Source: an uncultured Acidobacteriota bacterium (GTDB lineage Bacteria > Acidobacteriota > Thermoanaerobaculia > UBA5066 > Gp7-AA6). Taken from it: a stretch of DNA of 64,000 nucleotides. Position 1 is the stretch's first letter. Each line of letters begins with the position of its first letter. The notes beneath the pieces are model-generated. The model saw only the letters and a program-made list of their open reading frames with translations. It did not search any database and was not told the origin of the DNA. Both the position numbers and the translations under genes were made by a program. The stretch covers positions 586,178 to 650,177 of the forward strand of contig CAVXRK010000004.1 in the NCBI GenBank assembly GCA_963764025.1. Direction: 5' to 3'. Below are positions 1,227-53,127 of the stretch, in pieces.

Positions 1227-1316
1227 GGGGGTCAGGTCTTCATTTTTCGGATCTCGGTTCCCGCGTCGCGTGAGCAAGACGTTCCCGAGATCTCGAAAAA
1301 GTGAAGACCTGACCCC
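1227..1316. repeat. MITE-like hairpin element, repeat family A (GGGGTCAGGTCTnnATTTTTCGG arms)
   Basis: About 30-nt inverted arms at 1227-1258 and 1286-1316 are near-perfect reverse complements. The same arm sequence recurs at 18044, 52131 and 53102. Confidence 0.7.
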
Positions 1317-1345
1317 GACCTCGTCTCGACGACCGTTCCGACGGT

Positions 1346-2551
1346 CTAGGTCAGCGGGAGACGGCCCGCGAAGCCTTCCTCGTACGAGTGGAAGTGGTTG
1401 AGCCCGGCCTCGGGGTACTTCCAGCAGTAGTAGCCGCCGCCCGAGTCGAAGTCGACGAGCCAGACGCCCTTGATCTCGAGTCCCATTCCCTGGAGCTCTT
1501 GCGCCCAGGCTCGCACGACCTCCTGCCGCGCCTCCTCGAGATCGCCCGGCAGCTTCGAGAACTGGGCCACGGCCTCGGAGGTGATCTCCTGGACTCGCGG
1601 AAGAAGCTCCCGGGCTTCCTCCAGCGTGAAGATCCGGCGCTCCGGGGCGGGCGCCTCCGCCGTCTCTTCGTCTCGTCGTTTCGATCCGTCGACGTCGATG
1701 TCGACGTCGCCCGCCTCGCCGCGCAGACGGGCGCGCACGGCCTCGATGAGCCGGGCGATGCCTTCGGCGTCCTCGCCGCCGGCCGCGGCGGCGTACGCCT
1801 CGAGCACCGGGAGCGCCTCCTCCGGCCGGCCGCACTTGACGAGCAGGAGCCCGCGCTCGCGGACGATCTCGGGATCGTCGGGCTCGAGCGCCTCGGCGCA
1901 GGCGAGCACACCGAGGGCGTCCTCCCAGCGGTCGCGCTGCTCGTAGGAGCGCCGCAGGTTGAGCAGCACGCGCGCGAGGATCGCGCGGGGCGGGTCCGGC
2001 TGCAGGATCTCGGGTCCGACGGCGACCGGCTGGCCGAAGATCGCCGCGAGCCGGCGCGCCAATCCGCCCGCTTCATAGAGCTCCCCGCCGTCGAACGGAT
2101 CCAGATACATGCCGTCCGGCAGGTCCGGGCCGCCGACGACGAAGTGGCCGGGTAGCCCGACGCCCGTCAGCCGCAGGCCGGCGAGCCGGCCGACTTCGAT
2201 CGCGAGGATCGAGAGCGTGATGGGCAGGCCGCGGTGGCGGAAGAGCGCCCGCGCGACCGAGGAGTTCGAGGGCTGGTCGTAGTCCTCTTCGTCGCCGCGG
2301 AATCCTTCCTCCTCGAAGAGCACCTCGCCGAGCGCCGCGTGGGGCGCCGCGCCCGCGGCGATCTTCTCCTCGACGCGCAAGGCAAGGGCCGCGACGGCCT
2401 CGCGGGCCGCCCCGAGGTCCTCGCCCGGGTCGACGAGCTCGGCCACGAGCAGCGCCCCCTCGAAGAGGTCGAGCTCGGGCGATGCGGCGTACCGCCGGAA
2501 CCTCGACGCGAGAGAGTCCCGTTCGCCCGCCATCCGGCTGCCCGCTTCCAC
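1346..2551 (-). CDS. SirB1/transglutaminase-like TPR-family N-terminal domain fused to DUF2203-like C-terminal domain
   Basis: 401-aa ORF. N-terminal part has a ...ARALFRHRGLPITLSILAIEVGRLAGL..GVGLPGHFVV.. signature. C-terminal part has KGVWLVDFDSGGGYYCWKYPEAGLNHFHSYEEGFAGR. Confidence 0.55.
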   Translation of the reverse strand: MEAGSRMAGERDSLASRFRRYAASPELDLFEGALLVAELVDPGEDLGAAREAVAALALRVEEKIAAGAAPHAALGEVLFEEEGFRGDEEDYDQPSNSSVARALFRHRGLPITLSILAIEVGRLAGLRLTGVGLPGHFVVGGPDLPDGMYLDPFDGGELYEAGGLARRLAAIFGQPVAVGPEILQPDPPRAILARVLLNLRRSYEQRDRWEDALGVLACAEALEPDDPEIVRERGLLLVKCGRPEEALPVLEAYAAAAGGEDAEGIARLIEAVRARLRGEAGDVDIDVDGSKRRDEETAEAPAPERRIFTLEEARELLPRVQEITSEAVAQFSKLPGDLEEARQEVVRAWAQELQGMGLEIKGVWLVDFDSGGGYYCWKYPEAGLNHFHSYEEGFAGRLPLT

Positions 2552-3186
2552 TACCCCTCCCGCCGCGCGATGGCCACACCGTCGCGGAGCGGAACGATCG
2601 CCGTCTCGAACTCCTGCAGGGCGAAGAGGCGCCGGTTGAACTGGCGGATGCCTTCCGTCGCCGCGTCCTGGACCTTCGGATCGACGACCTTGCCGGACCA
2701 GAGCACGTTGTCGGCGATGAGGTACCCGCCCCGGCGCACCCGCGGCGCCGCCGCCTGGAGGGCCTGCGGGTAGCCGTCCTTGTCGACGTCGATGAAGATG
2801 ACGTCGTAGTACCCGGTCGTCGCCTCGAGCGACGTGACGGCGTCGCCGACGCGGATCGCGACGCGGTCGAGGTACCCCAGGCGCTCGAGGTACCCCTTCG
2901 CCCGCTCGGCGTTCTCGGCGTTGCCGTCGGTATACGTCACCTGGCCGCCCTTGCCGACCGCGCGCGCGAAGAAGGCCGTCGAGTAGCCGATCGCGCTGCC
3001 GAGCTCGAAGATCCGCTGGGCGCCGATCGAGCGCGCCAGGATCTCGAGCAGGGTGGCGACGGCGGGCCCCACGATCGGGACGTCGTGCCCGGCGGCGTAG
3101 GCCTCCATCTCCGCGATCACGGGGTCGCGCGGCGGCAGCAGGTCGAGCACGTAGCGGTCGAGCTCGGGGGCGATCAATCCGGCCAT
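2551..3186 (-). CDS. Class I SAM-dependent O-methyltransferase (caffeoyl-CoA OMT-like)
   Basis: MAGLIAPELDRYVLDLLPPRDPVIAEMEAYAAGHDVPIVGPAVATLLEILARSIGAQRIFELGSAIGYSTAFFARAV...VIFIDVDKDGYP...GGYLIADNVLW. The ATG corresponds to cat at 3184-3186. The 691-aa ORF-track extension upstream is GC-frame noise. Confidence 0.8.
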   Translation of the reverse strand: MAGLIAPELDRYVLDLLPPRDPVIAEMEAYAAGHDVPIVGPAVATLLEILARSIGAQRIFELGSAIGYSTAFFARAVGKGGQVTYTDGNAENAERAKGYLERLGYLDRVAIRVGDAVTSLEATTGYYDVIFIDVDKDGYPQALQAAAPRVRRGGYLIADNVLWSGKVVDPKVQDAATEGIRQFNRRLFALQEFETAIVPLRDGVAIARREG

Positions 3187-3419
3187 GAGCGGGATCTTAT
3201 CTCCGTCGCTTCGCTTGCTCGGGGGTCTGCACCGTCGCTTCGCTTGCGAGGAGGGTCTGCGCCTGCGGCGCACCGGCGAGCGGCTCGCCTGTGGGCTCGA
3301 CCGCTCGCCTGACCTCCTCGCTGCGCTTCGCTCCCGCGGCGCGGACCTCCTCCCTCCCTTCGGTCGGGAGACTATCCGCGCCGCGAACGACAGGGACAGC
3401 GTCCTTCTATAATCCGCGG

Positions 3420-6032: not shown

Positions 6033-7330
6033 AGTGGCGGCTGCGCCCCGAGGCGCATCCCGAGCTCGTCAAGCCCGCGGGCCCCAACCTCGGCGTCGCC
6101 CCTCCCCGCGGGGCCGAGGCGCCGCGCCGCGGGATGTTCGCCTCGCTCGCGCACACGCAGTACCGGCGCTACTGGACGGGGCTCTTCCTCTCGAACGTGG
6201 GCACGTGGATGCAGTCGGTCGCGCAGGGATGGCTCGTTCTGCGTCTCTCGAACTCGGCCTTTCTCCTCGGCCTCGTCGGCTTCGTCGGGTCGATCCCGAC
6301 GCTCCTGCTCGCGCCGCTCGCCGGCGTCGCCGCGGACCGGCTCGACCGCCGCCGCCTGCTCCTCGCGACCCAGGCGACGCAGATGGCCTGCGCGTTCACT
6401 CTCGCCGTCGCGGTCTACGAAGGGTTCGTCTCGGTCCCCCTCGTGGCGGGGGTCGCCGTCGTCAACGGCATCGCCAATGCCCTGACCACGCCGGCTCACC
6501 AGACGCTCTTTCTCGACCTCGTGGGGCCCGAGGACCTGACCAACGCCATCGCGCTGAACTCGATGCAGTTCAACCTCTCGCGGATCGTCGGCCCGGCGCT
6601 CGCCGGCCTCGCGATCGGCGCCCTCGGGGAAGCCGCCTGCTTCGCCCTGAACGGGATCTCGTTCGTCGCGATCCTCGTGCCGCTCGCGATCCTTCCGGCC
6701 ATGCCCCCGTCGCGGCGCCGGGCGCGGAGCGCGTGGATCGACCTGCGCGCGGGACTGCGCTTCGCCCGGCGACATCCGTTGATCCCGCAGCTTCTCTTCC
6801 TGATCGCCTCGCTCGCCATCTTCGGGACGCCCGCGGTCACGATGGCCCCGCTCTTCGCGAAGAACCTGCTCGGCGTCGGGCCCGAGGGCCTCGGCGGCAT
6901 GCTCTCGGCGGTCGGCGTCGGCGCGGTCGCGACCGCCCTGCTCATGGCTTCCGGCGGCGATTTCGGCCACAAGGGCGCCGGCGTCCTCGCGGCGTCCACC
7001 GGCTTCGCGCTGTCGCTCGCCGGCTTCGCCCTCTCCCGAAGCTACACGCTGTCGCTCGCGTGCCTGGTGGTCCTCGGCGGCTCGATGACCTCGACGGCCT
7101 CGCTCGTCAACACGCTCCTGCAGAAGAGCGCGCCGAACCGCATGCGCGGCCGCGTGATTTCGCTCTACGCCCTGGCCTGGCTGGGGTTCGTGCCGCTCGG
7201 CAACCTGCAGGCCGGGATCGTCGCGCAGCGCTTCGGCGCTGCCTCGACCCTCCTCGTCGGCGCCGCCGGCATCACGCTGACGCTGGTGCTCCTCCGCCTC
7301 TTCCGTCCGGTGCCTCTGGAAGCGGCGTAA
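6029..7330 (+). CDS. MFS transporter (EntS/MFS_3-like)
   Basis: ATGA overlap with the upstream gene. ...YRRYWTGLFLSNVGTWMQSVAQGWLVL...LAPLAGVAADRLDRRRLL.., 12 predicted TM helices. Confidence 0.75.
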   Translation: MKWRLRPEAHPELVKPAGPNLGVAPPRGAEAPRRGMFASLAHTQYRRYWTGLFLSNVGTWMQSVAQGWLVLRLSNSAFLLGLVGFVGSIPTLLLAPLAGVAADRLDRRRLLLATQATQMACAFTLAVAVYEGFVSVPLVAGVAVVNGIANALTTPAHQTLFLDLVGPEDLTNAIALNSMQFNLSRIVGPALAGLAIGALGEAACFALNGISFVAILVPLAILPAMPPSRRRARSAWIDLRAGLRFARRHPLIPQLLFLIASLAIFGTPAVTMAPLFAKNLLGVGPEGLGGMLSAVGVGAVATALLMASGGDFGHKGAGVLAASTGFALSLAGFALSRSYTLSLACLVVLGGSMTSTASLVNTLLQKSAPNRMRGRVISLYALAWLGFVPLGNLQAGIVAQRFGAASTLLVGAAGITLTLVLLRLFRPVPLEAA

Positions 7331-10944: not shown

Positions 10945-11130
10945 AACCCTCTCCCCTGAGGGGAGAGGGAAGGGTGAGGGGTTCGAAGCAAGCGCCGTCC
11001 CGGATCATTTTCTTTCGCTAGACGCGTGGGGCGCCCCTCACCCCGACCCGATACCAGCGGCTGACGCCGCTGTTGCCTGACGCCGGGGGTTTGCCTCCGG
11101 TGGACGGCTCCCGCCGGGAGAGGGGGTAGG
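10945..11130 (-). repeat. Intergenic repeat element: hairpin CCCTCTCCCC..GGGGAGAGGG plus family-B 40-nt core; homologous to 60465-60650
   Basis: The reverse complement of 11036-11128 aligns to 60463-60555 (ccctctcccggcgggagccgtccaccagaggcagaccc.cggcg.taggcaaca..ggcgt.agccg.tggtatcgggtcgggg.gagggg). Confidence 0.7.
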
Positions 11131-13080: not shown

Positions 13081-13109
13081 CTCGGGGGCCCGCGGGCCCC
13101 CTTTTTTTT
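13081..13109 (+). terminator. Rho-independent terminator
   Basis: gggggcccgcgggccccc followed by a T-run (tttttttt). Confidence 0.8.
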
Positions 13110-17774: not shown

Positions 17775-18242
17775 ATGCGGCGCTTCGTCCGGAAGGGCGA
17801 GGCGCCGATCGAGCCCGACGCCCTTCTCTGCCGCCACCTGCGGACCAAGACCTGGTTCTCCCCCGACGCCTTCGGCGAGGGGGATCCGCGCCAGTCGCCG
17901 TCGACGGCCCAGTACTGGTGCCTCCGGACGATGCGCCCCAGCGGGCCCGACGGCGATCTCGCCCTGCCCGAGGAGTGCACGGACGAGCGCGTCTGCTTCG
18001 AGCCGCTCATCGCAAAGGGCGGGGACTCGAGCCGAAAAAGCCGGGGGTCAGGTCTGGAATTTTCGGTTGGGCATGGGGAAGGTCATGTTCGGCCGTCCGG
18101 GTGCAGGTCCCGATCCGAAAAATCGAGACCTGACCCTATCTCTTCTTCAGGTCCATCAGGACCTGGCGCGCCACGGCTTTCAGCGTGTCGAACACCCCGG
18201 CGCCGGTCGTCGCGACGGCCTCGAAGGTCGGCTCGCGCTTGA
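17775..18242 (+). CDS. Hypothetical Cys-rich small protein; ORF reads through a MITE-like element
   Basis: [79 protein letters not shown] with strong GC3 bias. No stop until 18242 because the repeat at 18044-18136 is in frame. Confidence 0.3.
18044..18136. repeat. MITE-like hairpin element, repeat family A
   Basis: gggggtcaggtctggaattttcggttggg ... cccgatccgaaaaatcgagacctgaccc (inverted arms). Confidence 0.7.
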
Positions 18243-21845: not shown

Positions 21846-22068
21846 CGGGGGTATCTTAATCGGTCGCTCGACGCGACCGGACGGGAGCGGAGAGCAAGTT
21901 CGGCAAGATCGAGTGCCTCTGAGGTACCCGGCGGCCGAAGATGAGCTCAGGTTGACCTGCGGCGCACGGTGGCGCCTCCTGATCGCTGCTTCCTTCCGGA
22001 CCTGACGAGGTTCGGAGACTTCCGTCGCACAGGGCCCGAACTCATCTTCCGCCGCCGGACGGACGATT

Positions 22069-27171: not shown

Positions 27172-27182
27172 TGGGAGCGGGG

Positions 27183-27192
27183 GGATTCTACC
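27183..27192 (-). promoter_or_regulatory. GGTAGAATCC motif (TAGAAT -10-like) 12 nt upstream of K1 ATG
   Basis: Coding-strand ggtagaatccccccgctcccaATG. The same motif recurs 10-14 nt upstream of the K3 and K7 start codons. Confidence 0.3.
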
Positions 27193-27198
27193 GGAGGC

Positions 27199-32361: not shown

Positions 32362-32387
32362 TAAGGCGGCAGGATTCTAACCGCGAA

Positions 32388-34962: not shown

Positions 34963-37553
34963 TTCAATCCTTCGACCAGGTACAAGTTCGAGAGGTTCCG
35001 GAAGTAGCTGTAGGCATAGGCGCCGTTCGGCGCGTTGACCGGAAGGCGATCAGACTGTTGATCCCGGTCGCGTCGGACGGAAAGAACTCGCGCCAGAGCT
35101 CCTCCCGGCCGGTGTCCGGGATCGAGCGCGAAAAGCCGCATCGGCATCTCGGTCGAGGTCCCCTTGCGCACGAGGATTCGACCGTCCGGGGTCCAGCCCG
35201 CGAGCGAAGACGTCGTCTCGTATCCCGGCACCGGCTTCGGCTCTCCTCCGTCGACCGAGACGACGAATGCCTCGCCCTTCGGTCCCCTTAAGGCGACACG
35301 CTTTCCGTCCGGCGAGACCAGGATCCCCCGGTAGCCCTCCGCGGTCAGCGGCCGCGGTGCGCCGCCCTCGGCGTCGAAGACGTACGTTCGCGCGCCGCGT
35401 GCCCTTTCTCGACGGCGACGCGCGAGAAAGTGCCGCCCGTCGGGCAGCCATCGGGCGATCCGAACGGCGAGATCCGCCGTCCGGGACCTTCTTCGCTTCG
35501 CCGGCGCCCGTCGGATACACGACGATCTCGGGCGCGTCGGGCGCGCCCACGAACGCCAGCACGCGCTTGCCGTCGGCCGAAATGGATTGGGCGTTGCCCT
35601 CTCCCAACCGCACCGCCGGCGAACCGTCGATCGCGCGCAGGTAGACCGAATAGCCCTTTCCTCCGCCCTCGCCCGCTTCGCTGAAAAGCACGGATCGCGC
35701 CGTCGGCGGAGATGTCCGGCATAAGGCTCCAGTCGAGCCAGCTCAGGTCGATTTCCTTCGCGTCGGCCGGCGCCGCGGGCGAGGATGCCGATCTGTCCGG
35801 TGTCGTGCGAGATCAGGACGCGGCCGTCCCGCGATGACGTCCTCGAGCGTCAGCGATCCCGCGACGCGGGCGAGCGTGCGAGTCCGGCCCGAAAGCGTGG
35901 CGGAATGGAGAACACGGTTGCTGCCGACCTCCGCCGCCGTGAACCAGACCTCCGAGCCGTGCGGGCGACCAGGCGAGCCCGTTCGACGACGCGTAGACCG
36001 GGCGAGATGGTCGTCTTTCTTCCCGGCGCGGTCGACCACGGCGACGGATCCGCCGTCATCGTTGACGGCGGGATGGTCCAGGAAAGCGATCCGGGCGCCG
36101 TCGGGCGAGAACCGGGGGTTGCCGATCCAGCCCGCGGTCTCGTACAGGACCTTTCCCGTCGGGAACTCGAGCCGGCACTTGCGGTTCAGGATCCGCACGA
36201 TCGCGAGGTCCTTGCCGTCGGGGGACCAGTCGGCGTACTCGACGTTCTCGAGGAGCTCGCGCGGCGCGCCGCCGGTCGCGCTGACCCGCGCGAGCGTGCC
36301 GGTACGCGTGAAGGCCGTGTCGAAGTCGGCTTTGAGGATGACGGCCACCTCTCCCGATGCGGAGACGGCGGCGACGTCGGCGCCGGGAAGGCCGAACGGC
36401 CGCGACTCGGGGCTGTCGGGCCGGCTGACGTAGATCTCGGCCGGCTTTCCGTCCCAGGCCGCCGTCGTCAGGATCGTTTTTCCGTCGGAGCCGAAGCGCG
36501 CGCCCCAGATGGCGCCCTTGCGGAAGGTGAGCTGGCGGAAGGTCGGGGGCTCGGCTCGTTCCCTTCCCGTGGCCGAGGAAGTAGCCCAGGGCGACGGCCG
36601 CCGCGAGAGCGGCGGCGCCGACGGCGTACGGAACGACGCGCGCCCGGGCCGGCCGATCGGGCACCGCCGAAACCGCCGTCGACGCCGGTCGTGCCCGACA
36701 GCGCCTCGAGATCGAACGCCAGGTCGTGCGCCGAGTGGAAGCGCTCCTCGGGATTCTTTTCGAGGCAGTGCCGCACGACGCGGTCGAGCCCCGGCGCGAC
36801 GTTCTTGTTCGTCGCCGAGAGGTCCGGCGGGTCCTCCCGCAGGATCGCCGACATCGTCTCCGCCGCCGAGTCGCGGTGGAAGGCGCGCGAGCCCGAGATC
36901 ATCTCGTAGAGGACGGCGCCGAACGAGAAGATGTCCGAGCGCGCGTCGGCCTTCTTTCCCTTGACCTGCTCGGGCGCCATGTAGCCGAGCGTGCCGAGGA
37001 CGACGCCGGGCTCGGTGCCGTCGGCGGTCGGCAGGTTCGTCTGCGGCCCGGCCGCGCCGTCGGCCTGCGTCAGCTTGGCGAGACCGAAGTCGAGGATCTT
37101 GACCCGGCCGTCGTTCGTGACGAAGAGGTTCTCGGGCTTCAGGTCCCGGTGAACGATCCCCTTCTCGTGCGCCGCGGCGAGCCCGCGGGCGACCTGGATC
37201 GCGTAGTCGGTGGCCTTGCGCACGGGCAGCGCGCCGCCCGAGAGCCTCGCCCGCAGCGTCTCGCCCTCGAGGAGCTCCGTGACGATGTACGGCGAACCCT
37301 CGAACGCGCCGAGCTCGTAGACCGAGGTGATGTTCGGGTGGTTGAGCCCGCCGGCCGACTGCGCCTCCTGCTCGAACCGGCGCAGGCGCTCGGGGTCCTG
37401 CGCGAACGACGAGGGCAGCACCTTGACCGCGACGTCCCGCTTCAGCCGCTCGTCGCGCGCCCGGTAAACCTCGCCCATCCCTCCGGCGCCGAGGAGGCCG
37501 AGGACCTCGTAAGGACCCAACTTCGTCCCGGCGGCGAGACTCAAAGGGACCAC
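34959..37553 (-). pseudogene. STK-TolB propeller kinase paralog K5 (subtype B), multiple frameshifts
   Basis: N-terminal 361-aa kinase ORF (..[53 protein letters not shown]..). Propeller pieces in two other frames (..[24 protein letters not shown]..; ..MLFSEAGEGGGKGYSVYLRAIDGSPAVRLG..; ..LYLVEGLK). ATGA overlap with K4. Confidence 0.7.
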
Positions 37554-37698
37554 CGCACTTTCTGCCCGTCATTCCGAGGAGCGAAGCGACGAGGAATCCC
37601 GCGCTCGACGCGCCGCCGGGTGGTCCGAGCCCGGGATGCCTCGCTGCGCTCGGCATGACGGCGAGTGTCGAGAATCAATTTCAACCCTTCTAACCGAC

Positions 37699-40270
37699 TC
37701 ATTTGAGGTTCTTCACCTGATACAGCGTCGAGAGAACCCGAACGACCCCGACGATCACCGTCCGACCGTCCGGCGTCACGCGCACCGGTCCGAAGGAGGT
37801 CACACCCCCGGAATCGCCGCCGGAGAGCTCCCGGACTCGGGTCCGACGGCCGGAAGCGATGTCGATCAGGTCGAGCTTGCACGGGATCCCCTGCTGGGAG
37901 ACGTACAGGCCCTTCCCGTCCGCCGTCCATCCCGCCGGCGAGTCCGCGGGCAGGGAGGCCGCCAGATCGGTCGCGGACCCTCCGCCGAGCGGGTAGAGGT
38001 GCACCCGCGTATCCGGGCCGATGGCGGCGATCCAGCGCGAGTCCGGAGAGACGAAGTGACGCGCCGAGGAGATTCCCTCCTGGCTGATCGCTTTCGGCGC
38101 GCCTCCGGCGAGGTCCTGCACGTAGAGGCGGCTCCCCCGCCCCGGGGCGTTCGCCACGAATACGAACTTCGTTCCGTCTGGAACGAAGGCCCCATACGAC
38201 GTTCGTCCGAGGTCGTCGGGCGGAAAAGACTTCGGCTGTCCGATCTTCACCGGCACGAGCACGAAGTGCTGCGGATTCGAAAACACCCGGGTCAGCGCCC
38301 ACGCGGAATCGGGCGACAGGGCGATTCCGACGCCGTCACCCAGCCGAACGGCGGGAGCGCCGTCCGTCGGCCGCAGGTACACTCCGCCCGCCGGCCCTCC
38401 GCCTTCCCCCGACTCGTCGAACAGCATGAGCTTGCCGTCCACCGAGAGGGCGCGGTCGCTCGACCAGTCGAACCAGGTCAGATCCTTCCCGGCCGGCTCC
38501 CCGGGCCCGAAGACGGCCACGCTCGACCGGTAATCGTCCTCCGTGATCAGAGCGCCTCCGTCCTTCCTCACGTCGAGAAGCGCCGGAGTTCCCTGCATCG
38601 TCCGGATCAGCCGGAGCTTGCCCGCCGGAGTGACGCCGTAGACCATGCGCTCGATGCCTTCCCGCGCCGCCGTGAACCAGATTTCGCGACCGTCCGGCGA
38701 CCACGCCAGGCCCTGCACCGTGGCCCATCCTTCGGAGAGATCGGTCTTCTTGCCGGCGAGATCGACGATCGCGATCGCGCCGTCGTCTCCCGCCGAAGAG
38801 TGGTCGATGAACGCGATCCTGCGTCCGTCCGGAGCAAAGCGCGGATTCTGCATCCAGCCCGCCGTCTCGTAGAGAACCTTGCCGATCGGATATTCCAGTC
38901 GATCCTTGCCTCCCGTGCGGCGCATCACGGCGAGCTCGGACCCTCCCGGCGCCCATTCGGCGTAGCCGACGTCGGCCAGCACTTCCTTGGGAGCTGCGCC
39001 CGACAGCGGCACTCGGGCGAGCGTCCCGTGGAGCGCGAAGCCGTTCACGTTGTAATTCGGCTCGAGCAGGACCGCCATCTCGCCGGAGGACGAGATCGAC
39101 AACAGTTCCGCCGCCGGCAGCGGAAGCGTGGAGGATTCCGGGTTCCCGGGTCGCAGCGAGTAGATCCGGGGAGCAGCCCCGCTCCAGGCGGCCGTGTAGT
39201 AGACCGTGCTGCCGTCGGGCCCGAATCGCGCCGTGCTGACGGTGCCGCGCTGAAACGTCAGGCGCTGAAAGGTCGGCTGTGTCGACGATCCGGTGCGGCG
39301 GCCGCGCGTACAGCCCCAGGAGGGCGCCCACGACGGCCGCCAACCCCAGAAGAGCCCAGGGCCGTCGCGCGCGTTTCGCGGGGAGCGCCCGCACGCCCGT
39401 GATCGCCGGTGACGACAGACCCGAAAGCGCTTCGAGATCGAAGGCGACGTCCCTCGCCGACTCGAACCGCTCCTCCGGATTCTTCTCGAGACAGTGCCGC
39501 ACGATCCGGTCCAGCCCGGGTGGCACGTCCTTGTTCGTCTGCGAAAGATCCGGCGGCTCCTTCGACAGGATCGCCGTGATCGTGTCCGCCGCGGTGTCGC
39601 CGCGAAACGCCCTCTGCCCCGAGAGCATCTCGTACAGGATCGTCCCGAAGGCGAAGAGATCGGACCGCTTGTCGGCCGACTTCCCGCGCACCTGCTCGGG
39701 CGCCATGTAACCCATCGTCCCGAGCACGACTCCCGGCTGAGTCCCGCCCGAGACCGTTCCGGCGTCCGTCTGACCGCTCTCCGCGCCGTCCAGCTTCAGC
39801 TTCGCGAGGCCGAAGTCGAGGATCTTGACCCGCCCATCCTTCGTCAGGAACACATTCTCGGGCTTCAGGTCGCGGTGGACGATCCCCTTCTCGTGCGCGG
39901 CCGCGAGACCCTTCGCGATCTGCACGGCATAGTCGATCGCTTTGCGCGGCGAGATGGCGCCGGGCCCGAGCCGGCTGCGCAGAGTCTCGCCTTCGAGGAG
40001 CTCCGTGACGATGTACGGCGCGTCGTCGTGCTCGCCGAAGTCATAGACCGCCGTGATGTTCGGATGGTTCAGCGCCCCGGCCGCCTGGGCCTCCTGCTCG
40101 AAGCGCTTCAGGCGATCCGCGTCCTGCGAAAACGACGCCGGCAGCACCTTGATCGCCACGTCGCGCTTGAGCCGCTCGTCCCGCGCGCGGTAGACCTCCC
40201 CCATCCCGCCCGCCCCGATCGGCGAGAGGATCTGGTAGGGACCGAGCTTCGTGCCGGCGGCCAGGGTCAT
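37699..40270 (-). pseudogene. STK-TolB propeller kinase paralog K6 (subtype A), single +1 insertion near 39270
   Basis: 644-aa N-terminal ORF ([44 protein letters not shown]...TM..TADL) and 467-aa C-terminal ORF (..[16 protein letters not shown]...VLSTLYQVKNLK). An extra T in gaccTTTcag separates them; correcting it gives [27 protein letters not shown]. Confidence 0.75.
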
Positions 40271-40271
40271 T

Positions 40272-40480
40272 TCAGATTCCGGGTCCAGTAAAGAGTCGAG
40301 AGAACAGAGTGAACCCCAACGTCATCGTTTTCCCGTCGGGCGTGACGCGTGCCGAACCACGGGCTGTCATGCCGGCGAGGTCAGTGGCAGACAGGTCGCG
40401 AACGTGCGTTCGAGCTCCGGAGACGATGTCGAACGAGTGAACGAGCGACTTGCCTTCCCATTTGCCGCCGAGGCAAACGC
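40272..40480 (-). pseudogene. 3' remnant (last ~70 codons) of a further kinase-propeller paralog
   Basis: ..[56 protein letters not shown] resembles the K6 C-terminus (..LIDIASGRRTRVRELSG..VRVTPDGRTVIVG..LSTLYQVKNLK). Its stop lies 1 nt before the K6 ATG. Confidence 0.55.
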
Positions 40481-40585
40481 CGGTCTGACGACCGGCGTCA
40501 AGCTCGGCGTCGCCTCCGGCAGGCGGTCTGCCTTCGGTGGCCGGCTCCACGGTCCGCGAAGCGGACCGCTAGAGGTCCGTGCCAT

Positions 40586-43165
40586 CTACCGGAGACCATC
40601 CACGACGTAGAGATCCGCGAGACTGCGCGCGAAGGAGTAGGCGTAGTACTTCTCGTCGGGCGTGATCCAGACTGGCGAGATCAGCCAGATGCCGGCCGGG
40701 TCGGGAGGCATGAGCTCTTTCCAGAGCTCCTTGCGACCCGTGGCGACATCGAGCTTCATGACGCGCTGCGGCACTTCTCCGCGGACGCGCACGAACAGGA
40801 AGCGGCCGTCGGCAGTCCAACCGCTCGGAATGTCTCCCTTCACGAGCCCCGGGATCGGCGCTGGCTCTCCGCCCGCGACCGGATAGAGATAGAAGCGCTG
40901 GTCCGGGCCGACCACCGTCAGAGCCTTGCCATCGCGAGAGCCTCCCCTCGCGAACATCCGGTAGCCCTCCGGTGAGACGGGCTTCGGTTTCGCGTCGTCC
41001 AACCCCTGCACCCAGAGGCGCGACCCGCGATCCGGCTCGCTTCCGGAGAAGACGATCCGGCGGCCGTCCGGCAGCCAGTCCGCCTGCTCGATCCGGATCG
41101 CCGTCGCCGGCAGCATCTTCGGCTCGCCCGCGCCTATCGGATAGATCGCGAAGCGATAGAGCGCGCCCTGCTTGACGATCCCGAGCGCCACGCGGCCATC
41201 CGGAGAAAATTCCGCGGCCACGCCGCCCCCGAGTCGCACCGCGGGCGACCCATCCGCCTTCCGAACGTAGACGGTGTTACCGCCCGAGCCTTCGCCGCTC
41301 TCGTCGAAGAGCAGCGTCTGGCCGTCGGGAGTGACGTCGCGAATGAGCGACCAGTCGAGCCAGGCGAAGTCGCGTTCCTTCTCTCCACCGGGGAGCAACC
41401 CGGAGATCCCCTGGCGGGCTTTCTCCTGCGTGACGAGCACTCGCCCGCTCTTTGCGACGTCCTGGATCGTGAAACCGCCGGTCCCCTGGGCGAGGATTCG
41501 GACTCGGCCGGAGCGGGAGGCGGCGCAGAGCGCCCGCGTGAAGCCCTCCTTCGCCCCCGTGAACCAGACCTCGGAGCCGTCCGGCGACCACGCGAGCCCC
41601 TGTGCGCTGACGAAGAGGCCGGAGATCACGACTCGCTTACCCGAGCGGTCGACGATCATTGCCGTTCCCGCGTCGTCGCCCTGAGCCGGGTGGTCGAGAA
41701 ACGCCACCTCGTCGCCCTTCGGCGAGACCCGCGGATGGGAGATCCAACCGGCGGTCTCGTACAGGACCTTGCCGACGGGATACTCGAGCCGGACCTTTCC
41801 GCCCTGCTGCCGAACGATGGCGAGACTCTGGCCGTCCGGGGCCCAATCGGCCCACAGCACGTCCTCGAGGACCTCCTTCGGCGTGCCGCCGCCCGTCATG
41901 CCGAGGCGCGCGAGCGTGCCGGTACGAGTGAACGGGATCGAGCCGTGGCGATTCAGCGACACCGCCATCTCTCCGGAAGGCGAGACCGCCAGCACCTCCG
42001 CGTTCGCCAGGCCGAACAGGCGCGACTCCGGATTGTCCAGCCGCGAGACGAACACCTCCATGGGGCGGCCGTCCCAGTTCGCCGAGTACAGGATCGTCTG
42101 TCCGTCCGGAGCGAAGCGCGCGGAGGCCATCACGCCCCGCCGGAACGTGAGCTGGTGAAACGTCGGCGGCGGCACGTATCCGGCGCGCTTCCCGACCCAG
42201 TAGGCCGCCGCGATTGCCGCGAGCGCAACGCCGACGCCGACCAGAAGCGGCAGGCGGCGGCCTCCGACCGGCACGCGCAACTTTTCGAGAGTGGGCTTTG
42301 AAGCGGAGGACCCGGAGAGCGCCTCGAGATCGAAGGCGAGGTCGTGTGCCGAGTGGAACCGCTCCTCGGGGTTCTTCTCCAGGCAATGGCGCACGACGCG
42401 CTCGAGGCCCGGCTGCACGCTCTTGTTCGTCGCCGACAGATCCGGCGGCTCCTCCCGCAGAATGGCCGACATCGTCTCGGCCGCGGTGTCCCGATGGAAA
42501 GCGCGAGCGCCCGAGAGCATCTCGTAGAGCACCGCCCCGAACGCAAAAATGTCGGAGCGCGCGTCGGCGGTCTTGCCCTTGACTTGCTCCGGCGACATGT
42601 AGCCGAGCGTCCCCATCACGACGCCCGGCTCCGTCGCCGGAGGCGCGGTCGGGAAATTCGTCTGCGGACCCACCGCGCCGTCGGCCTGCGTCAGCTTGGC
42701 GAGACCGAAGTCCAGGATCTTGATCCTCCCGTCGTTGGTCACGAACACGTTCTCGGGCTTGAAGTCCCGGTGAACGATTCCTTTCTCGTGCGCCGCGGCG
42801 AGGCCCCGGGCCATCTGGATCGCGTAGTCCGTGGCCTTCCGCACGGGAAGGGCTCCCCCGGAGACGCGGGCGCGCAGCGTCTCCCCCTCGAGAAGCTCGC
42901 TGACGATGTATGGAGAGCCCTCGTAGGAACCCAGCTCGAACACCGCGGTGATGTTGGGATGGTTGAGCGACCCTGCGGCCTGCGCCTCCTGCTCGAACCG
43001 CTTGAGGCGATCGGTGTCCTGCGTGAACGACGGTGGGAGGACCTTGACCGCGACGCTGCGTTTCAAACGCTCGTCCCTGGCGCGGTAAACCTCGCCCATT
43101 CCCCCGGCGCCGATCGGCGCGAGGATCTCGTAGGGGCCGAGCCTTGTTCCCGAGGACAGCGTCAT
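40586..43165 (-). CDS. Ser/Thr protein kinase with TM helix and C-terminal TolB/PD40-like beta-propeller (K7, intact, subtype B)
   Basis: 859 aa from ATG (cat at 43163-43165). [44 protein letters not shown]...HRDFKPENVF..DFGLAK..; TM LPLLVGVGVALAAIAAAYWV; propeller to ..LYVVDGLR. GGGTAGAATCG lies 14 nt upstream. Confidence 0.9.
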   Translation of the reverse strand: MTLSSGTRLGPYEILAPIGAGGMGEVYRARDERLKRSVAVKVLPPSFTQDTDRLKRFEQEAQAAGSLNHPNITAVFELGSYEGSPYIVSELLEGETLRARVSGGALPVRKATDYAIQMARGLAAAHEKGIVHRDFKPENVFVTNDGRIKILDFGLAKLTQADGAVGPQTNFPTAPPATEPGVVMGTLGYMSPEQVKGKTADARSDIFAFGAVLYEMLSGARAFHRDTAAETMSAILREEPPDLSATNKSVQPGLERVVRHCLEKNPEERFHSAHDLAFDLEALSGSSASKPTLEKLRVPVGGRRLPLLVGVGVALAAIAAAYWVGKRAGYVPPPTFHQLTFRRGVMASARFAPDGQTILYSANWDGRPMEVFVSRLDNPESRLFGLANAEVLAVSPSGEMAVSLNRHGSIPFTRTGTLARLGMTGGGTPKEVLEDVLWADWAPDGQSLAIVRQQGGKVRLEYPVGKVLYETAGWISHPRVSPKGDEVAFLDHPAQGDDAGTAMIVDRSGKRVVISGLFVSAQGLAWSPDGSEVWFTGAKEGFTRALCAASRSGRVRILAQGTGGFTIQDVAKSGRVLVTQEKARQGISGLLPGGEKERDFAWLDWSLIRDVTPDGQTLLFDESGEGSGGNTVYVRKADGSPAVRLGGGVAAEFSPDGRVALGIVKQGALYRFAIYPIGAGEPKMLPATAIRIEQADWLPDGRRIVFSGSEPDRGSRLWVQGLDDAKPKPVSPEGYRMFARGGSRDGKALTVVGPDQRFYLYPVAGGEPAPIPGLVKGDIPSGWTADGRFLFVRVRGEVPQRVMKLDVATGRKELWKELMPPDPAGIWLISPVWITPDEKYYAYSFARSLADLYVVDGLR

Positions 43166-43230
43166 GAAAGCTGGCGCGATTCTACCCGCAGTCGTGGCGT
43201 ATTCTTGCGCCGCTTCCAAGAGAGGTGAAC

Positions 43231-45438
43231 ATGCTGCGTCGAGGAACTTCGAGCCATGCCGCGATCCTCCTGCTCGCCGCGCTCCCGGCGCTGGCCCAGA
43301 CGCCCCGCGATCTGACCGTCGACTGGATCTACGGCGAGGAAGCGACCTCGGCTGCGAAGGTCCCGAAGTTCGCCTGGACGAGCGGAGGCGAGCTGCTCCT
43401 CCTCGACGAAACCGCACCGCCGGCGACGCGCACGATCGAGCGGGTGACGCCAAAGACGGGGCAGCGGACGGCGGCCGTCGATGCGGCGGCGGCCCTGGCG
43501 AGCCTGAAGGCCATCTCGCCGAAGTCGGTGCCCGAGACCCTGCCCTGGCCCGAGGCGCTCGATCCCGCCGGGAGGACGGCCATCTACGTGATCGGCGACG
43601 ATCTCTATTCGCTCGATCTGGCGGCATCTCGTTTCGAGCGCCTGACGCGGACCGACGCGGCCGAGTCGCTCCCGCGTGTCTCCCCGGATGGACGAAGGGT
43701 CGCCTTCGTGCGCGCCAACGACCTGTGGGTCCTCGACCTCGCGACGAAAGCCGAGACCCGGCTGACCTCTGACGGCAGCGACACGATCCTGAACGGCACG
43801 TTGTCCTGGGTCTACTGGGAGGAAATCTTCGACCGCGGGGACACGGGGTTCTGGTGGTCTCCCGACTCCTCCGCGATCACGTTCCTGCGGACCGACGAGT
43901 CCGCGGTCGACGTCTCGCTGTTCACCGACTTCTCGCCCGCGGTTCCGCGCGTCATCAAGCAGCGCTATCCGCGGACCGGCGGCGCCAACCCCACAGTCCG
44001 CCTCGGCATCGCCGACGTCTCCGGCCGGAAGACGGCGTGGATGGATTCCTCGGAAGTCCCGTACGAGTACGTCCTCGGCGTCGATTGGCTGCCGGACAGC
44101 CGCTCGGTCGCCGTTCAGACGACCAACCGCGCCCAGACGAAGCTCGACGTCTGGCGGTTCGACCGCGCGACGGGCAAGACGGCGCTGGTGCTCTCCGAGG
44201 CCGACCCGGCCTTCGTCTACCAGAAAGAGATCCAGTTCTCCGACGGCGGAAAGACCTGGATCGTGACTTTCGAGAGCGGCGGCCACACGCACCTTTTCCG
44301 CTACGGCGCCGATGGTGTCCGCCGGAACGCCGTGACGCAGGGCCCCTGGTCGGTCCGCGGGCCGGGCACGTTCTACGGCGCGCCCAAGGGCTCGGCCTTC
44401 GTCGACGACGCCGCGGGCCTCGTCTACTTCACCTCGATCGAGAAGTCGCCCCTCGAGCGCCACCTCTACCGGATCCGGCCGGACGGAACGGGGATGGCGC
44501 GCATCACCCGCGAGGACGGCATGCACCGGGTCGCCCTCTCACCCGACCGCCGCTACTACGTCGACACGTATTCGAACCGCGACACCCTGCCGTCGCTTTC
44601 CCTCCACGACATCTCGGGCAAGAGCGTCGCGACCCTGTCCCCGAGCCGGATGGAGGTCCTCGCGCCGTACGCCCTCGCGAAACGGGAGCTCATCACGATC
44701 CCCGCGCCCGACGGGTTCGCCATTCCGGCGAGCCTGTTGAAGCCCGCGTCCCTCGACTCCTCGAAGAAGTACCCCGTCCTCATCCACGTTTACGGCGGCC
44801 CCGGCGCGCCGATCGTCCAGAACCGATGGGAACGCGACGGCCTGTTCGACCAGCTTCTCGTCTCGCAGGGCTACGTCGTGGCCTCGTTCGATCCGCGGAG
44901 CGCGACCGGGCAGAGCAAGGCCCTCGAGGATCTGGTCGTCCGCCGGATGATGAGCGACGTCGAGCTCGGCGATCTCCAGACGGCGGTCAAGTGGCTCAAG
45001 GCTCAGTCCTGGGCCGACCCGGCGCGGTTCGGCATCTGGGGCTGGAGCGGCGGCGGCTCGTACACGCTCCTCGCGATGACGCGCACGCAGGAGTTCAAGG
45101 CCGGCATCTCCGGCGCACCCGTCACCGACTGGCACTTCTACGATTCCAAGTTCGGCGAGGCCTACATGAAGACCGCCGAGGACAACCCCGAGGGGTACGC
45201 GCTGACGTCGTTCGTCAAGCGTGCGAAGGACCTGTCGGGGCGCCTGCTCCTCGTCTTCGGGTCCTATGACGACAACGTCCACCCGCAGAACGAGTGGGCC
45301 TTCGCCGACGCCCTGATCGCGGCAGGAAAGCCGTTCGACATCATGGTCTACCCGATGCGCAAGCACGGCTTCGTCGACAAGCCGGCGATCCGCCACCGGG
45401 CCGCAAAGATGCTGGAGTTCTGGAAGCTGTACCTGTAG
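43231..45438 (+). CDS. Dipeptidyl-peptidase IV (S9B prolyl oligopeptidase family: N-terminal propeller plus alpha/beta hydrolase), secreted
   Basis: SD aagagagg. MLRRGTSSHAAILLLAALPALAQ signal. ..WSPDGRRVAFVR.. propeller. C-terminal ..GIWGWSGGGSYTLLAM... (GWSGG nucleophile elbow). Confidence 0.85.
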   Translation: MLRRGTSSHAAILLLAALPALAQTPRDLTVDWIYGEEATSAAKVPKFAWTSGGELLLLDETAPPATRTIERVTPKTGQRTAAVDAAAALASLKAISPKSVPETLPWPEALDPAGRTAIYVIGDDLYSLDLAASRFERLTRTDAAESLPRVSPDGRRVAFVRANDLWVLDLATKAETRLTSDGSDTILNGTLSWVYWEEIFDRGDTGFWWSPDSSAITFLRTDESAVDVSLFTDFSPAVPRVIKQRYPRTGGANPTVRLGIADVSGRKTAWMDSSEVPYEYVLGVDWLPDSRSVAVQTTNRAQTKLDVWRFDRATGKTALVLSEADPAFVYQKEIQFSDGGKTWIVTFESGGHTHLFRYGADGVRRNAVTQGPWSVRGPGTFYGAPKGSAFVDDAAGLVYFTSIEKSPLERHLYRIRPDGTGMARITREDGMHRVALSPDRRYYVDTYSNRDTLPSLSLHDISGKSVATLSPSRMEVLAPYALAKRELITIPAPDGFAIPASLLKPASLDSSKKYPVLIHVYGGPGAPIVQNRWERDGLFDQLLVSQGYVVASFDPRSATGQSKALEDLVVRRMMSDVELGDLQTAVKWLKAQSWADPARFGIWGWSGGGSYTLLAMTRTQEFKAGISGAPVTDWHFYDSKFGEAYMKTAEDNPEGYALTSFVKRAKDLSGRLLLVFGSYDDNVHPQNEWAFADALIAAGKPFDIMVYPMRKHGFVDKPAIRHRAAKMLEFWKLYL

Positions 45439-51638: not shown

Positions 51639-51693
51639 CTTCGAACTGGAGTAGCCTCCCCGCGATGTCTTTCACGACCAGGACCGCCGTTTC

Positions 51694-52122
51694 ATGGCCG
51701 AGGCCCTGGCCTTCGCCCGGATCGCCTACGCCGAGCAGGAGGTCCCGATCGGGGCAGTCGTCGTCCGGGGCGGCCGGATGATCGGCCGGGGGCGCAACCG
51801 GCGCGAACGGCTGGCCGACCCGACCCACCACGCCGAGATCGAGGCCATCCGGGAGGCCGCCCGGGAAGTCGGCCACTGGCGCCTCGAGGATTGCACTCTC
51901 TACGCCACCCTGGAGCCCTGCCCGATGTGCGCCGGCGCCGCGGTCAACGCCCGGATCCGCCGGATCGTCTTCGGTTGCACGGACCCCAAGGCCGGATACT
52001 GCGGGACCCTCGGCAACATCCCGGGAGACGCGCGGCTGAACCACCGACCCCAGGTCGAGGGAGGACTGCTGGCCGAAGAGTCGGCCGACATGCTCAAACA
52101 GTTCTTCCAGGCGAAACGCTGA
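51694..52122 (+). CDS. tadA: tRNA-specific adenosine deaminase TadA
   Basis: MAEALAFARIAYAEQEVPIGAVVVRGGRMIGRGRNRRE...HAEIEAIREAAR...TLYATLEPCPMCAGA (HAE and PCxxC zinc motifs). Confidence 0.85.
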   Translation: MAEALAFARIAYAEQEVPIGAVVVRGGRMIGRGRNRRERLADPTHHAEIEAIREAAREVGHWRLEDCTLYATLEPCPMCAGAAVNARIRRIVFGCTDPKAGYCGTLGNIPGDARLNHRPQVEGGLLAEESADMLKQFFQAKR

Positions 52123-52130
52123 GGGCTGAC

Positions 52131-52153
52131 GGGGTCAGGTCTTCATTTTTCGG
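52131..52153 (+). repeat. Solo arm of repeat family A (ggggtcaggtcttcatttttcgg)
   Basis: Identical to the left arm at 1229-1251. Confidence 0.6.
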
Positions 52154-52175
52154 TTCCCGATCGAAGCCCGCCGGG

Positions 52176-52562
52176 TCAGGCCCGCTGGTAGATCTGGATC
52201 AGGTTGCCGCAGGTGTCGGCGAAGACCGCCATCGTGACGGGCCCGGCCGGAGTCGGCTCCATGGTGAACGCCACGCCCTTCTCCTTGAGCTTCGCGCACT
52301 CGCCCCGGATGTCGGACGACTCGAATGCCGCGAGCGGGATCCCCTGGGCGAACATCGCCTCCTGGAACTTTTTCGCCGCCGGGTTCGCGTTGGGCTCCAG
52401 CGCGAGCTGCACGTCGTCGCCCCCCTCCGGCGAGACGACGGTGATCCACCGGTACTCGCCGACGGGAAAGTCGAGCTTCGTCTTGAATCCCAGGACCTCC
52501 GTGTAGAACTTCTGCGCCCGGGCTTGGTCCTGGACCATGACGCTCGTCAGCTTGATCTTCAT
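52176..52562 (-). CDS. VOC-family (glyoxalase/bleomycin-resistance fold) protein
   Basis: MKIKLTSVMVQDQARAQKFYTEVLGFKTKLDFPVGEYRWITVVSPEGGDDVQLALEPN...FESSDIRGECAKLKEKGVAFTMEP...IQIYQRA, 128 aa. Confidence 0.75.
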   Translation of the reverse strand: MKIKLTSVMVQDQARAQKFYTEVLGFKTKLDFPVGEYRWITVVSPEGGDDVQLALEPNANPAAKKFQEAMFAQGIPLAAFESSDIRGECAKLKEKGVAFTMEPTPAGPVTMAVFADTCGNLIQIYQRA

Positions 52563-52615
52563 CGTCTCGCCCCTTTCTGCTCCGACCGGGCGGGAGTCTG
52601 CCCGAAGGCCGGGAG

Positions 52616-53101
52616 TCAGGCTTCTCGAAAACTGCGAAACGCCGACCGGGGCAGGCGGCCCATGAGCGACAAGCAGCCCGGGAAGAGCTCCTTCGGCAAC
52701 CCGCCGGGCACGCGGACCATCGACCGGGCCCGCCGCCGGAAGCCCGACGGCGTCTCGCCGACGCGGCGCGTGAAGAGATCGCTGAAGCTGCCGAGGCTCG
52801 AGAAGCCGACCTCCATGCAAACTTCCGTGACGGAAAGTTCGCCAATGGCCAGCAGACGCCGGGCCCGATCGAGCCGCGCCTCGATTCGGTACTGATGCGG
52901 CGTCGAGCCGAACAGGGCATCGAACTGGCGGATGAGGTGGAAAGGCGAGATCCCGACCAGCCGAGCCACTTCCTCGACCGACGGGGATCGGTCGGAGATC
53001 CGCTGCAGGACCTCCCGGCGGCGCGGCAAAGTGCCCGGAAGGACTCGGGCGAGAGCCTCATCGAAGACAAAGTCTAGCCGCAGACCAATCCGAAAGATCA
53101 C
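52616..53101 (-). CDS. AraC-family HTH regulator, apparently lacking the usual N-terminal sensor domain
   Basis: Possible GTG start at 53099-53101. ..EEVARLVGISPFHLIRQFDALFGSTPHQYRIEARLDRARRLLAIGELSVTEVCMEVGFSSLGSFSDLFTRRVGETP (tandem AraC HTH). The longer ORF-track N-terminus is translation of a family-A repeat arm. Confidence 0.5.
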   Translation of the reverse strand: MIFRIGLRLDFVFDEALARVLPGTLPRRREVLQRISDRSPSVEEVARLVGISPFHLIRQFDALFGSTPHQYRIEARLDRARRLLAIGELSVTEVCMEVGFSSLGSFSDLFTRRVGETPSGFRRRARSMVRVPGGLPKELFPGCLSLMGRLPRSAFRSFREA

Positions 53102-53127
53102 GGGGTCAGGTCTCGATTTTTCGGTCT
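53102..53127 (+). repeat. Solo arm of repeat family A (ggggtcaggtctcgatttttcggtc)
   Basis: Adjacent to the tRNA-Ser repeat complex and to the 5' end of the AraC-like gene. Confidence 0.6.

Follow-up and report, generated by a model that had tools for sequence, protein, structure and literature searches.

A dispersed hairpin repeat family at gene ends of Acidobacteriota is probably the non-autonomous repeat population of a TIRtron

Introduction

In the passages of Di Nocera et al. (2013) that deal with them, TIRtrons are defined by a gene named TIRYT, which resembles the tyrosine transposases associated with repetitive extragenic palindromes (RAYTs and REPs, respectively) and lies between long terminal inverted repeats (TIRs) instead of GTAG REPs (PMC3733652). 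According to the same passages, many TIRtron TIRs begin with GGGGWSAS, some overlap the 3' end of the TIRYT gene, the TIR families are moderately abundant, occurring as singles, dimers and groups, and the TIRYT class includes a sharply defined acidobacterial subgroup (PMC3733652). In the portion of Quentin et al. (2018) cited here, TIRYTs constitute subclass 2.1 of TnpA-Y1, whose members are long proteins with a C-terminus that is Bac_DnaA_C-like or another helix-turn-helix (HTH), and which corresponds to RAYT Group 1 of Bertels (PMC6006769). The 16-mers that flank Group 1 genes number on average about 12 per replicon, as compared with 57-140 in Groups 2 and 3, which are associated with REPINs (hairpin-forming REP doublets), as given in the abundance data of Bertels et al. 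(2017; PMC5581495). Here, we describe a family of hairpin repeats, hereafter family A, in a stretch of 64,000 nucleotides (nt) from an uncultured Acidobacteriota bacterium (contig CAVXRK010000004.1, positions 586,178 to 650,177), which is referred to at its full length as the window.

We assign a probability of about 80% to the reading that family A represents the dispersed, non-autonomous repeats of a TIRtron, its arms being the TIRs of an apparently low-copy TIRYT gene that is found in relatives. The repeats themselves are almost certainly non-autonomous. The family is new by sequence, and its kind is already known (TIRtron/TIRYT, RAYT Group 1). The matches of the arm sequence in a full-text search were limited to unrelated primers and nuclear-receptor response elements, and neither this sequence nor its Thermoanaerobaculia-type hosts turned up in the searchable literature. 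A previously anonymous hairpin repeat can now be tied to a defined enzyme-repeat system.

Results

Repeat Elements of the Window

Six matches to GGGGTCAGGTCTNNATTTTTCGG with at most 3 mismatches were found in the 64-kb window, at 1228 (+), 1316 (-), 18044 (+), 18137 (-), 52131 (+) and 53102 (+), the one at 1316 having 3 mismatches. The chance expectation for this pattern in the window is 0.01, none of 100 shuffles gave six matches, and a looser 18-mer search recovered the identical six sites. Clearly, the hairpin repeats of the window are a real family. Two further 9-mer matches, at 6533 and 47344, do not extend across the remaining arm and are non-members. The arms have the layout GGGGTCAGGTCT-NN-ATTTTTCGG, in which the dinucleotide NN defines the subtype. 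Four of them compose two inverted doublets and two are solo, as the first-pass annotation of the window had described, with coordinates that agree to within 1 nt:

1228-1316, doublet element 1, 89 nt: left arm 1228-1250 and right arm 1294-1316, both of TC subtype, 43-nt interior
1204-1206 and 1346-1348, neighbours of element 1: stop of a GAF-domain gene and stop of a convergent transglutaminase-like/DUF2203 gene, respectively
18044-18136, doublet element 2, 93 nt: left arm 18044-18066 of GG subtype, right arm 18115-18136/7 of CG subtype
neighbours of element 2: small Cys-rich open reading frame (ORF) (+) and the 3' end of mglA (-), which belongs to a convergent mglA/mglB pair
18032-18043, +: CCGAAA-bearing CCGAAAAAGCCG, the motif lying 12 nt upstream of the GGGG that opens element 2, an accessory feature of fixed phase that goes with arms of CG/GG type
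52131-52153, +: solo arm of TC subtype, 8 nt past the stop (52120-52122) of a tadA-like deaminase gene
53102-53124, +: solo arm of CG subtype, with CCGAAA at 53090-53095 (offset 12)

All four sites are intergenic, and the mglA stop (18136-18138) overlaps the last C of the right arm of element 2. The gene that follows the 52131 arm is a convergent glyoxalase/VOC gene, and this arm is kept at the orthologous site in a related genome (sampled locus L024). The 53102 arm, which is in direct orientation to the one at 52131, is located upstream of an HTH-only AraC gene (-) and ahead of a truncated tRNA-Ser copy. In this DNA of about 70% G+C, folding of the doublets as single strands gave long hairpins, of -59/-61 kcal/mol for element 1 (z -8.7/-7.7) and -54/-41 kcal/mol for element 2 (z -4.5/-3.7). 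The solo arms at 52131 and 53102 are without a partner, and their self-folding was not significant (z +0.7 and -1.2). An Rfam scan of the window found nothing at the elements, and only a signal recognition particle (SRP) RNA and three tRNAs passed the gathering threshold.

The Family in Related Genomes

The family was sampled by one exact-pattern scan with one genome per species, which yielded at least 103 loci (L numbers below) as 8-kb samples that were selected by their containing arms. Nearly all of them come from about 10 species of Acidobacteriota/Thermoanaerobaculia represented by metagenome-assembled genomes (MAGs; MFD numbers below). The few arm matches from other phyla among those listed are single and mostly chance-like. 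Over kilobases, the window shares 88-93% identity with three arm-bearing MAGs, and therefore derives from a further species of the same group. Counts of arm matches among the listed loci ranged from 169 to 208. The first-pass annotation had considered that the copies might exist only in the window or be parts of longer conserved genes; neither is the case, as the relatives hold more than 200 arms that are not parts of such genes.

The 45 strict inverted pairs among the listed loci were always in the order + then -, and the -/+ order was never seen. The start-to-start distances between arms clustered at 65 and at 83-87 nt, corresponding to elements of 69 and 87-91 nt. A relaxed partner search paired 151 of 186 arms and left 35 solo, and tandem and nested groups of arms were present in L101, L013 and L017. 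The family consensus is GGGGTCAGGTCT-(TC/CG)-ATTTTTCGG-ATTTCAG, followed by a spacer and then by the reverse complement, with an arm of 23-30 nt and a sharp boundary of conservation exactly at GGGG. The 45 doublets had a mean folding energy of -54 kcal/mol with a stem of about 30 bp, and the spacers, with a mean z of -0.6, gave no evidence of selected structure past that stem.

No target-site duplication was found in the 8-nt flanks of the 45 listed doublets, as expected for Y1/HUH transposition and unlike the miniature inverted-repeat transposable elements (MITEs) of DDE type. A scan of viral contigs gave a single chance-level match in low-GC coding DNA, and hence no phage link.

Two loci outside the group hold related arms. 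A MAG labelled Planctomycetales (L057, ~6700-6813) contains an identical TC-type arm with a degenerate partner, and a low-GC Coprothermobacterota contig (L062, 2389-2927) contains three related arms (GGGGTCAGGTCTTTACTTTTCG). No TIRYT gene was found within either locus, and these arms may be explained by mis-binning, by horizontal transfer or by the existence of related TIR families.

At some arms the flanking DNA is duplicated. Short tandem duplications of a few flank bases together with GGGGTCA(G), whole arms in tandem and one 99-nt tandem duplication of a whole element with its flank occurred among L025 4290-4330, L096 3790-3824, L017 ~3120-3160, L101 43-108 and L047 7470-7660. Such duplications may be footprints of aborted or repeated cleavage and joining at the arm end, or may come from replication slippage.

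A Predicted Tyrosine Transposase Gene between the Arms

In six genomes (L034, L007, L064, L097, L076 and L054), inverted arms about 1010 nt apart enclose a 320-aa ORF that is always preceded by an acetamidase-like gene and followed by a thioredoxin-like one. The TGA stop of this ORF falls inside the right arm at 6/6 loci, for example as TCC GAA ATC CGA AAA ATG AAG ACC TGA, which is read as SEIRKMKT*. The 320-aa protein matched Y1_Tnp of Pfam (E 2e-10), passed the NCBIfam REP_Tyr_transpos equivalog NF047646 (83.5 bits, cutoff 80) and failed the IS200 equivalog NF033573 (16 bits, cutoff 55). Its only meaningful relative in the PDB by sequence is 4ER8, the TnpA-REP of E. coli, with whose HMH and Y-INP motifs its HUH and Y-x3-NP motifs align. 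Moreover, N59-H60-Y61-H62 and Y119-V-V-L-N123-P124 (Y-x3-NP) are invariant across 36 homologues. Judged by these sequence features, the gene encodes an HUH/Y1 tyrosine transposase of the RAYT lineage, and is referred to as TIRYT below. The public data hold at least 7,879 homologues of it, several of which carry the Joint Genome Institute (JGI) name RayT.

The AlphaFold model of TIRYT had a mean pLDDT (predicted local distance difference test score) of 78, with values of 88-95 over residues 230-310. In Foldseek comparisons, the N-terminal domain of the model best matched 4ER8 (template modelling (TM) score 0.74), followed by the TnpA proteins of IS608 and ISDra2, and the C-terminal domain matched domain IV of DnaA (3PVP, TM 0.84, root-mean-square deviation 1.6 A; 1J1V, TM 0.77). 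In the model, the C-terminal part thus resembles a DNA-binding domain of the DnaA domain IV type.

The 90%-identity clusters of TIRYT were each found on 1-4 contigs, and MFD00822 has a second paralogue, P0105, at 54%, figures that are not whole-genome counts. In L054 (6702-7690, MFD09730), the TIRYT ORF is split by apparent frameshifts despite the many intact CG-type arms of that genome, and is either a pseudogene or affected by indels of long-read assembly.

Comparison with Described Systems

Family A shares with TIRtrons the arm start GGGGTCAG, which fits GGGGWSAS and is not that of GTAG-tagged palindromes, the Y1 gene bounded by inverted TIRs of which the right one overlaps the 3' end of the gene, and the dispersal of arms as singles, dimers and groups. 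With subclass 2.1/Group 1, it shares the long protein, the C-terminal HTH that is DnaA domain IV-like in the predicted fold, and the HuH and Y-x3-NP motifs. It appears to differ from Group 1 in number: the window has 6 arms in its 64 kb, and one MAG, of which 160 kb were sampled, has at least 43, as compared with the average of 12 for the flanking 16-mers. The abundance of the family thus looks unusually high for Group 1, in a sample that was chosen for containing arms. Additionally, genome-specific subtypes, replacement at orthologous sites and a phase-locked CCGAAA motif, which are presented below, are not described in the portions of the TIRtron literature cited here.

The likeness to the REPIN-RAYT systems of Pseudomonas fluorescens and to REP/BIME (bacterial interspersed mosaic element) and TnpA-REP of E. 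coli lies in the inverted hairpin doublets, which are extragenic and mostly downstream of genes, in the Y1 gene, seemingly single or low-copy and possibly vertically inherited, flanked by its own repeats, in the lack of target-site duplications and in the lineage-specific populations. As in REPINs, inverted hairpin doublets here flank and co-vary with a RAYT. However, the single arm of family A is not a GC-rich imperfect palindrome and has no 5' GTAG/CGTC tag, and the enzyme is twice as long, with an extra DNA-binding domain. IS200/IS605 and their miniature derivatives (PATEs) have in common with it the HUH/Y1 fold, the lack of target duplication and, likely, the recognition of single-stranded hairpins, but their ends are asymmetric subterminal hairpins and not TIRs, and they are multi-copy autonomous units. 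Finally, DDE-type MITEs such as the Correia elements of Neisseria are similar in size, TIRs, hairpin potential, intergenic location and possible effect on neighbouring 3' ends; in family A, by contrast, there is no duplication of TA or another target site and no DDE parent, the parent gene being a Y1 transposase.

Systems of the GTAG type were also encountered. In L070 (340-1170, MFD05942), a 155-aa classical RAYT lies between GTAG REPs (CGTAGGGGCGGGGCTCGTCCCCGCCC) that are absent from the window; a REPtron and a TIRtron therefore coexist in one genome. The window itself has a second repeat, at 23449, 53274, 53321, 53501 and 53801, in which GGCAGTAGG precedes a GC-rich palindrome, for instance CAGCGTCGCGCGAAGCGCGGCGCT. 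With 5 matches, as compared with 0.24 expected, it resembles a classical GTAG-tagged REP and probably represents a separate REP/RAYT system.

Arm Subtypes and Turnover at Orthologous Sites

The TC subtype characterizes six genomes, including MFD05942 (43/45), MFD06435 (22/23), MFD04944 and Lejia, and the CG subtype four, MFD09730 (27/32), MFD05442, MFD01916 and MFD00822. In 6/6 genomes with a captured TIRtron, the dominant arm subtype is that of the arms of the TIRtron itself. MFD05942 (TC) and MFD05442 (CG) stand at similar distances from the window, so that the subtype has switched recently on the scale of about 10% nucleotide divergence.

Elements are kept at orthologous sites across five species, where their subtype tracks the host genome and their spacers and lengths can be unrelated. 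Site 1, that of element 1, is occupied in L073, L080, L013 and L092, and site 2 in L042, L017, L100 and L072, with unrelated interiors at site 2. At the latter, the flanks of the window and of L042 are 90% identical while the spacers are unrelated and the lengths different, and L017 has a member of a 69-nt subfamily together with an additional right arm. Overall, replacement of the element with 80-90% identity of the flanks was found at three sites, namely site 2, part of site 1 and L008/L014. At site 1 in L013 (1713-1827, MFD09730), outer arms of CG type directly enclose a complete inner element that is orthologous to 1228-1316, which suggests insertion into or around an existing hairpin. Extra, nested and tandem arms accompany the elements at these orthologous sites. 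In a single example, a CG-type arm is intact in a CG genome, and its counterpart at the orthologous position in a TC genome has decayed.

In MFD05942, members of the 69-nt subfamily with a common spacer (GCYGTCGCGAACTGC...) are present at several non-orthologous loci, the clearest sign that whole doublets are copied. Taken together, these comparisons argue for a probable continuing, enzyme-linked turnover and against static relics.

The two solo arms of the window, in direct orientation, bound a segment that varies between species:

52154-53101, segment between the direct arms: glyoxalase/VOC gene 52176-52562 (-) and HTH-only AraC gene 52616-~53099 (-)

In L099 (MFD06435), this 971-bp segment is missing, and one arm lies between the tadA flank and the sequence that borders the 53102 arm. 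The single arm of L099 is of CG subtype, as is the distal arm, which is expected for recombination within the first 12 nt. In L024, the proximal arm and both genes are present and the distal arm is absent.

Placement at Gene Ends and the CCGAAA Motif

The placement of arms was compared with that of random positions by a stop-codon test, which took the place of an earlier gene caller based on G+C at third codon positions (GC3) that had mis-called strands at 70% GC. A probable gene stop, read toward the arm, was located up to 40 nt upstream of 38% of arms, as compared with 1.3% of random positions. The enrichment of arms next to stop codons was about 29-fold, with a distance peak at 0. The stop was TAG in 65% of the arm-adjacent cases, as compared with 31% in controls, and the terminal G of the arm often completed TA|G. 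The dinucleotide 5' of the G-run was TA or AT in 32% of arms. The first-pass annotation is borne out in that the repeats sit at gene ends and mark genome plasticity: they are dispersed, hairpin-forming, non-coding repeats at gene ends that mark structural variation.

The sequence CGAAA was present up to 22 nt upstream of 29% of arms, as compared with 1.6% of controls, and the offset of CCGAAA was fixed at 12-13 nt in 35/41 cases. The motif accompanied 49% of CG-type arms, as compared with 5% of TC-type arms. In several cases (acetamidase-like, GAF and tadA genes), CCGAAA falls within the conserved 3' coding sequence of the gene upstream, which suggests a feature of the target site. In other cases it flanks a CG-type doublet symmetrically (L008), or TC-type genomes lack it at the corresponding site, which suggests that it travels with the element. 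CCGAAA may be either a target-site feature or a part of the element.

Discussion

How a TIRYT would service TIR doublets is held with less confidence than the identity of the family, and is framed largely by analogy. By comparison with the TnpA of IS200/IS605 and the TnpA-REP of E. coli, TIRYT would recognise the arms, or else the folded doublet, when the DNA is single-stranded; as single-stranded DNA or RNA, doublets fold into a stem of about 30 bp. It would act as the catalyst by cutting at the GGGG/CCCC boundary, and would copy or move the element without duplicating the target. Insertions would survive, or be targeted, directly downstream of stop codons, often as TA|GGGG, and would often adjoin or enter existing copies. 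The arms of CG type may be inserted 12 nt downstream of a CCGAAA able to pair with the TTTTCGG of the arm.

The last step can be extended to a more speculative proposal, which we regard as doubtful, that TIRYT picks its sites by TTTTCGG:CCGAAA(A) pairing and that a RAYT of Group 1, which is usually considered repeat-poor, sustains a large REPIN-like population in co-evolution with its own ends. The inner TTTTCGG of the arm would pair with CCGAAA(A) in a single-stranded target, and joining of the arm would take place exactly 12-13 nt downstream, so that a small hairpin would form with GGGGTCAGGTCT exposed in the loop. If true, this would be a long-range, guide-like target rule for an enzyme of the RAYT family, and it would explain both the pile-up of copies at the same gene ends and their mutual replacement.

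Among the alternatives to a TIRtron population, we consider it unlikely, while giving it more weight than any other, that the elements are RNA or DNA structures selected by the host between convergent genes, such as bidirectional transcription attenuators, stabilisers of mRNA 3' ends or protein-binding sites, that the arms are conserved on account of this role, and that TIRYT is a domesticated maintenance enzyme or a mere neighbour. The very stable hairpins (mean -54 kcal/mol for the 45 doublets, z down to -8.7) would be accounted for, as would the strong enrichment right after stops and between convergent genes, the retention of elements at corresponding intergenic positions of five species whose flanks are in part no more than 70-80% identical, and the constancy of the TIRYT gene neighbours in six genomes; such roles have been reported for REPs, and RAYTs are called housekeeping-like and vertically inherited in the passages cited from PMC3733652 and PMC5581495. 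However, solo arms do not fold and are nonetheless conserved to the same degree as paired ones, spacers have next to no structure (mean z -0.6), and genome-wide switching between TC and CG and the replacement of whole elements are hard to obtain by selection site by site. Terminator function, which the first-pass annotation had raised together with mRNA stabilisation, is opposed by the lack of a U-tract after the stem and by T- and A-runs inside it, and a terminator scan skipped the elements, yet called canonical sites with a GC-stem and T-tract at 10947-10969 (-) and 13084-13101 (+). As canonical Rho-independent terminators, the elements were rejected, as no T-run follows the stem. A host function and a TIRtron origin are, nevertheless, compatible and not exclusive.

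It is less probable still that the family consists of ancient relics with drifted spacers, the arms of which are kept identical by short-tract gene conversion in the absence of ongoing transposition. Arms that are near-identical within a genome next to unique spacers, genome-specific subtypes and the near-restriction of similar spacers to orthologous copies would fit such conversion, but the unrelated spacers of the window and L042 at site 2, together with the 69-nt member in L017, represent replacement and not drift. The spacer common to non-orthologous loci of the 69-nt subfamily is likewise difficult to reconcile with it, nested and tandem arms indicate new insertions, and arms of 23-30 nt are short for homologous conversion. 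The MITE-like label of the first-pass annotation stands only in so far as these are hairpin repeats of a mobile type. Elements of 69-94 nt with TIRs of about 25-30 nt, non-coding, hairpin-forming and in many copies, look like a classical MITE, an internally deleted insertion sequence of DDE type mobilised in trans; nevertheless, the 45 listed doublets lack target-site duplications, the sole coding unit bounded by arms is the Y1/HUH gene in six genomes, and no DDE gene was found between arms among the 103 loci listed, where every pair of arms closer than 1200 nt is a doublet or the TIRYT unit. A DDE-type origin is thus very improbable.

Several points weigh against family A being the repeat population of a TIRtron. 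A tblastn search of the window found no TIRYT gene; a cognate gene in the source organism is predicted from three relatives at about 90% identity. Pfam found no domain in the C-terminal 171 aa of the protein, its DnaA-like assignment being one of predicted fold, and the sequence quality of the MAGs is uncertain, with possible indel errors. When both flanks of 133 repeat blocks were mapped onto the other genomes, no clean empty site was found; the candidates L090/L074, L016/L035, L047/L004 and L008/L014 proved to be decayed arms or replaced intergenic DNA. Insertion as an event was thus not observed directly, and the comparison with orthologous loci lacking the insertion, which the first-pass annotation had proposed for defining target-site duplications, met near-empty sites (L074, L035 and L004) with decayed or replaced sequence. 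In the sparse sample of the 87-91-nt class, almost all spacer matches were between orthologues, and the copying of these doublets as a unit is unproven. In addition, according to the statement cited from PMC6006769, transposition by a RAYT or TIRYT has never been demonstrated in vivo in any system.

For the annotation of Thermoanaerobaculia-type Acidobacteriota, masking of the elements is advised because they lengthen ORFs, as in the case of the Cys-rich ORF and of an over-long AraC call, which are described below. The arms are breakpoints of gene-content variation: a sister species lacks the glyoxalase/AraC pair that lies between direct arms here. To those who study RAYTs, the roughly 10 species offer a natural series in which a Group 1/TIRYT enzyme goes together with an abundant population of doublets, with two arm subtypes that track the ends of the enzyme gene, and in which repeat mobilisation can be tested. 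Of specialist interest are the abundance, the co-variation of subtypes with the transposase ends, the orthologous replacement and the phase-locked CCGAAA.

Neighbouring Genes and Other Observations

Element 2 had been said to be in frame with, and to extend, a Cys-rich ORF:

17775-18242, +: small Cys-rich ORF without a stop of its own, running through element 2 into the 3' end of mglA (opposite strand)

The ORF does read through the element, but this is due to a stop that the window lacks and is not a general property of the element. Four orthologues stop at TAG or TGA right before it. Their conservation points to a real small gene, and the missing stop may be a lineage-specific loss or an assembly error.

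The suggestion that the arm at 53102 provides the N-terminus of the AraC-like gene, which rests on a maximal ORF from GTG 53194, was not upheld. There are GTG and TTG starts downstream of the arm, and the orthologue in L024 is HTH-only, starts with ATG and has no arm upstream. The gene encodes an HTH-only regulator (HTH_18 of Pfam).

On the minus strand at ~24500-43600, large paralogous genes follow one another in a tandem array at intervals of about 2.6 kb, and one segment of L097 matches it in six places. Of three ORFs of the array that were scanned, one had no Pfam match, and two are Ser/Thr protein kinases with PD40 beta-propeller repeats.

The RNA genes of the window are the following:

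21942-22041, -: SRP RNA
51562: tRNA-Arg(ACG)
53620: tRNA-Ser(CGA)
56627: tRNA-Glu(CTC)

The 5' half of tRNA-Ser(CGA), with an upstream block, is present three times, at 53175-53236, at 53400-53476 and in the intact gene at 53620-53709. The truncated copies have an insert of about 65 nt (GCCGACCACC...GGCAGTAGGCAGCGTCGCGCGAAGCGCGGCGCTTAC) in the anticodon-loop region. Two copies were found in L099 and one in L024, where fragments of the 3' end are repeated downstream. The pattern resembles that of a hot spot at which rearrangement or integration has recurred.

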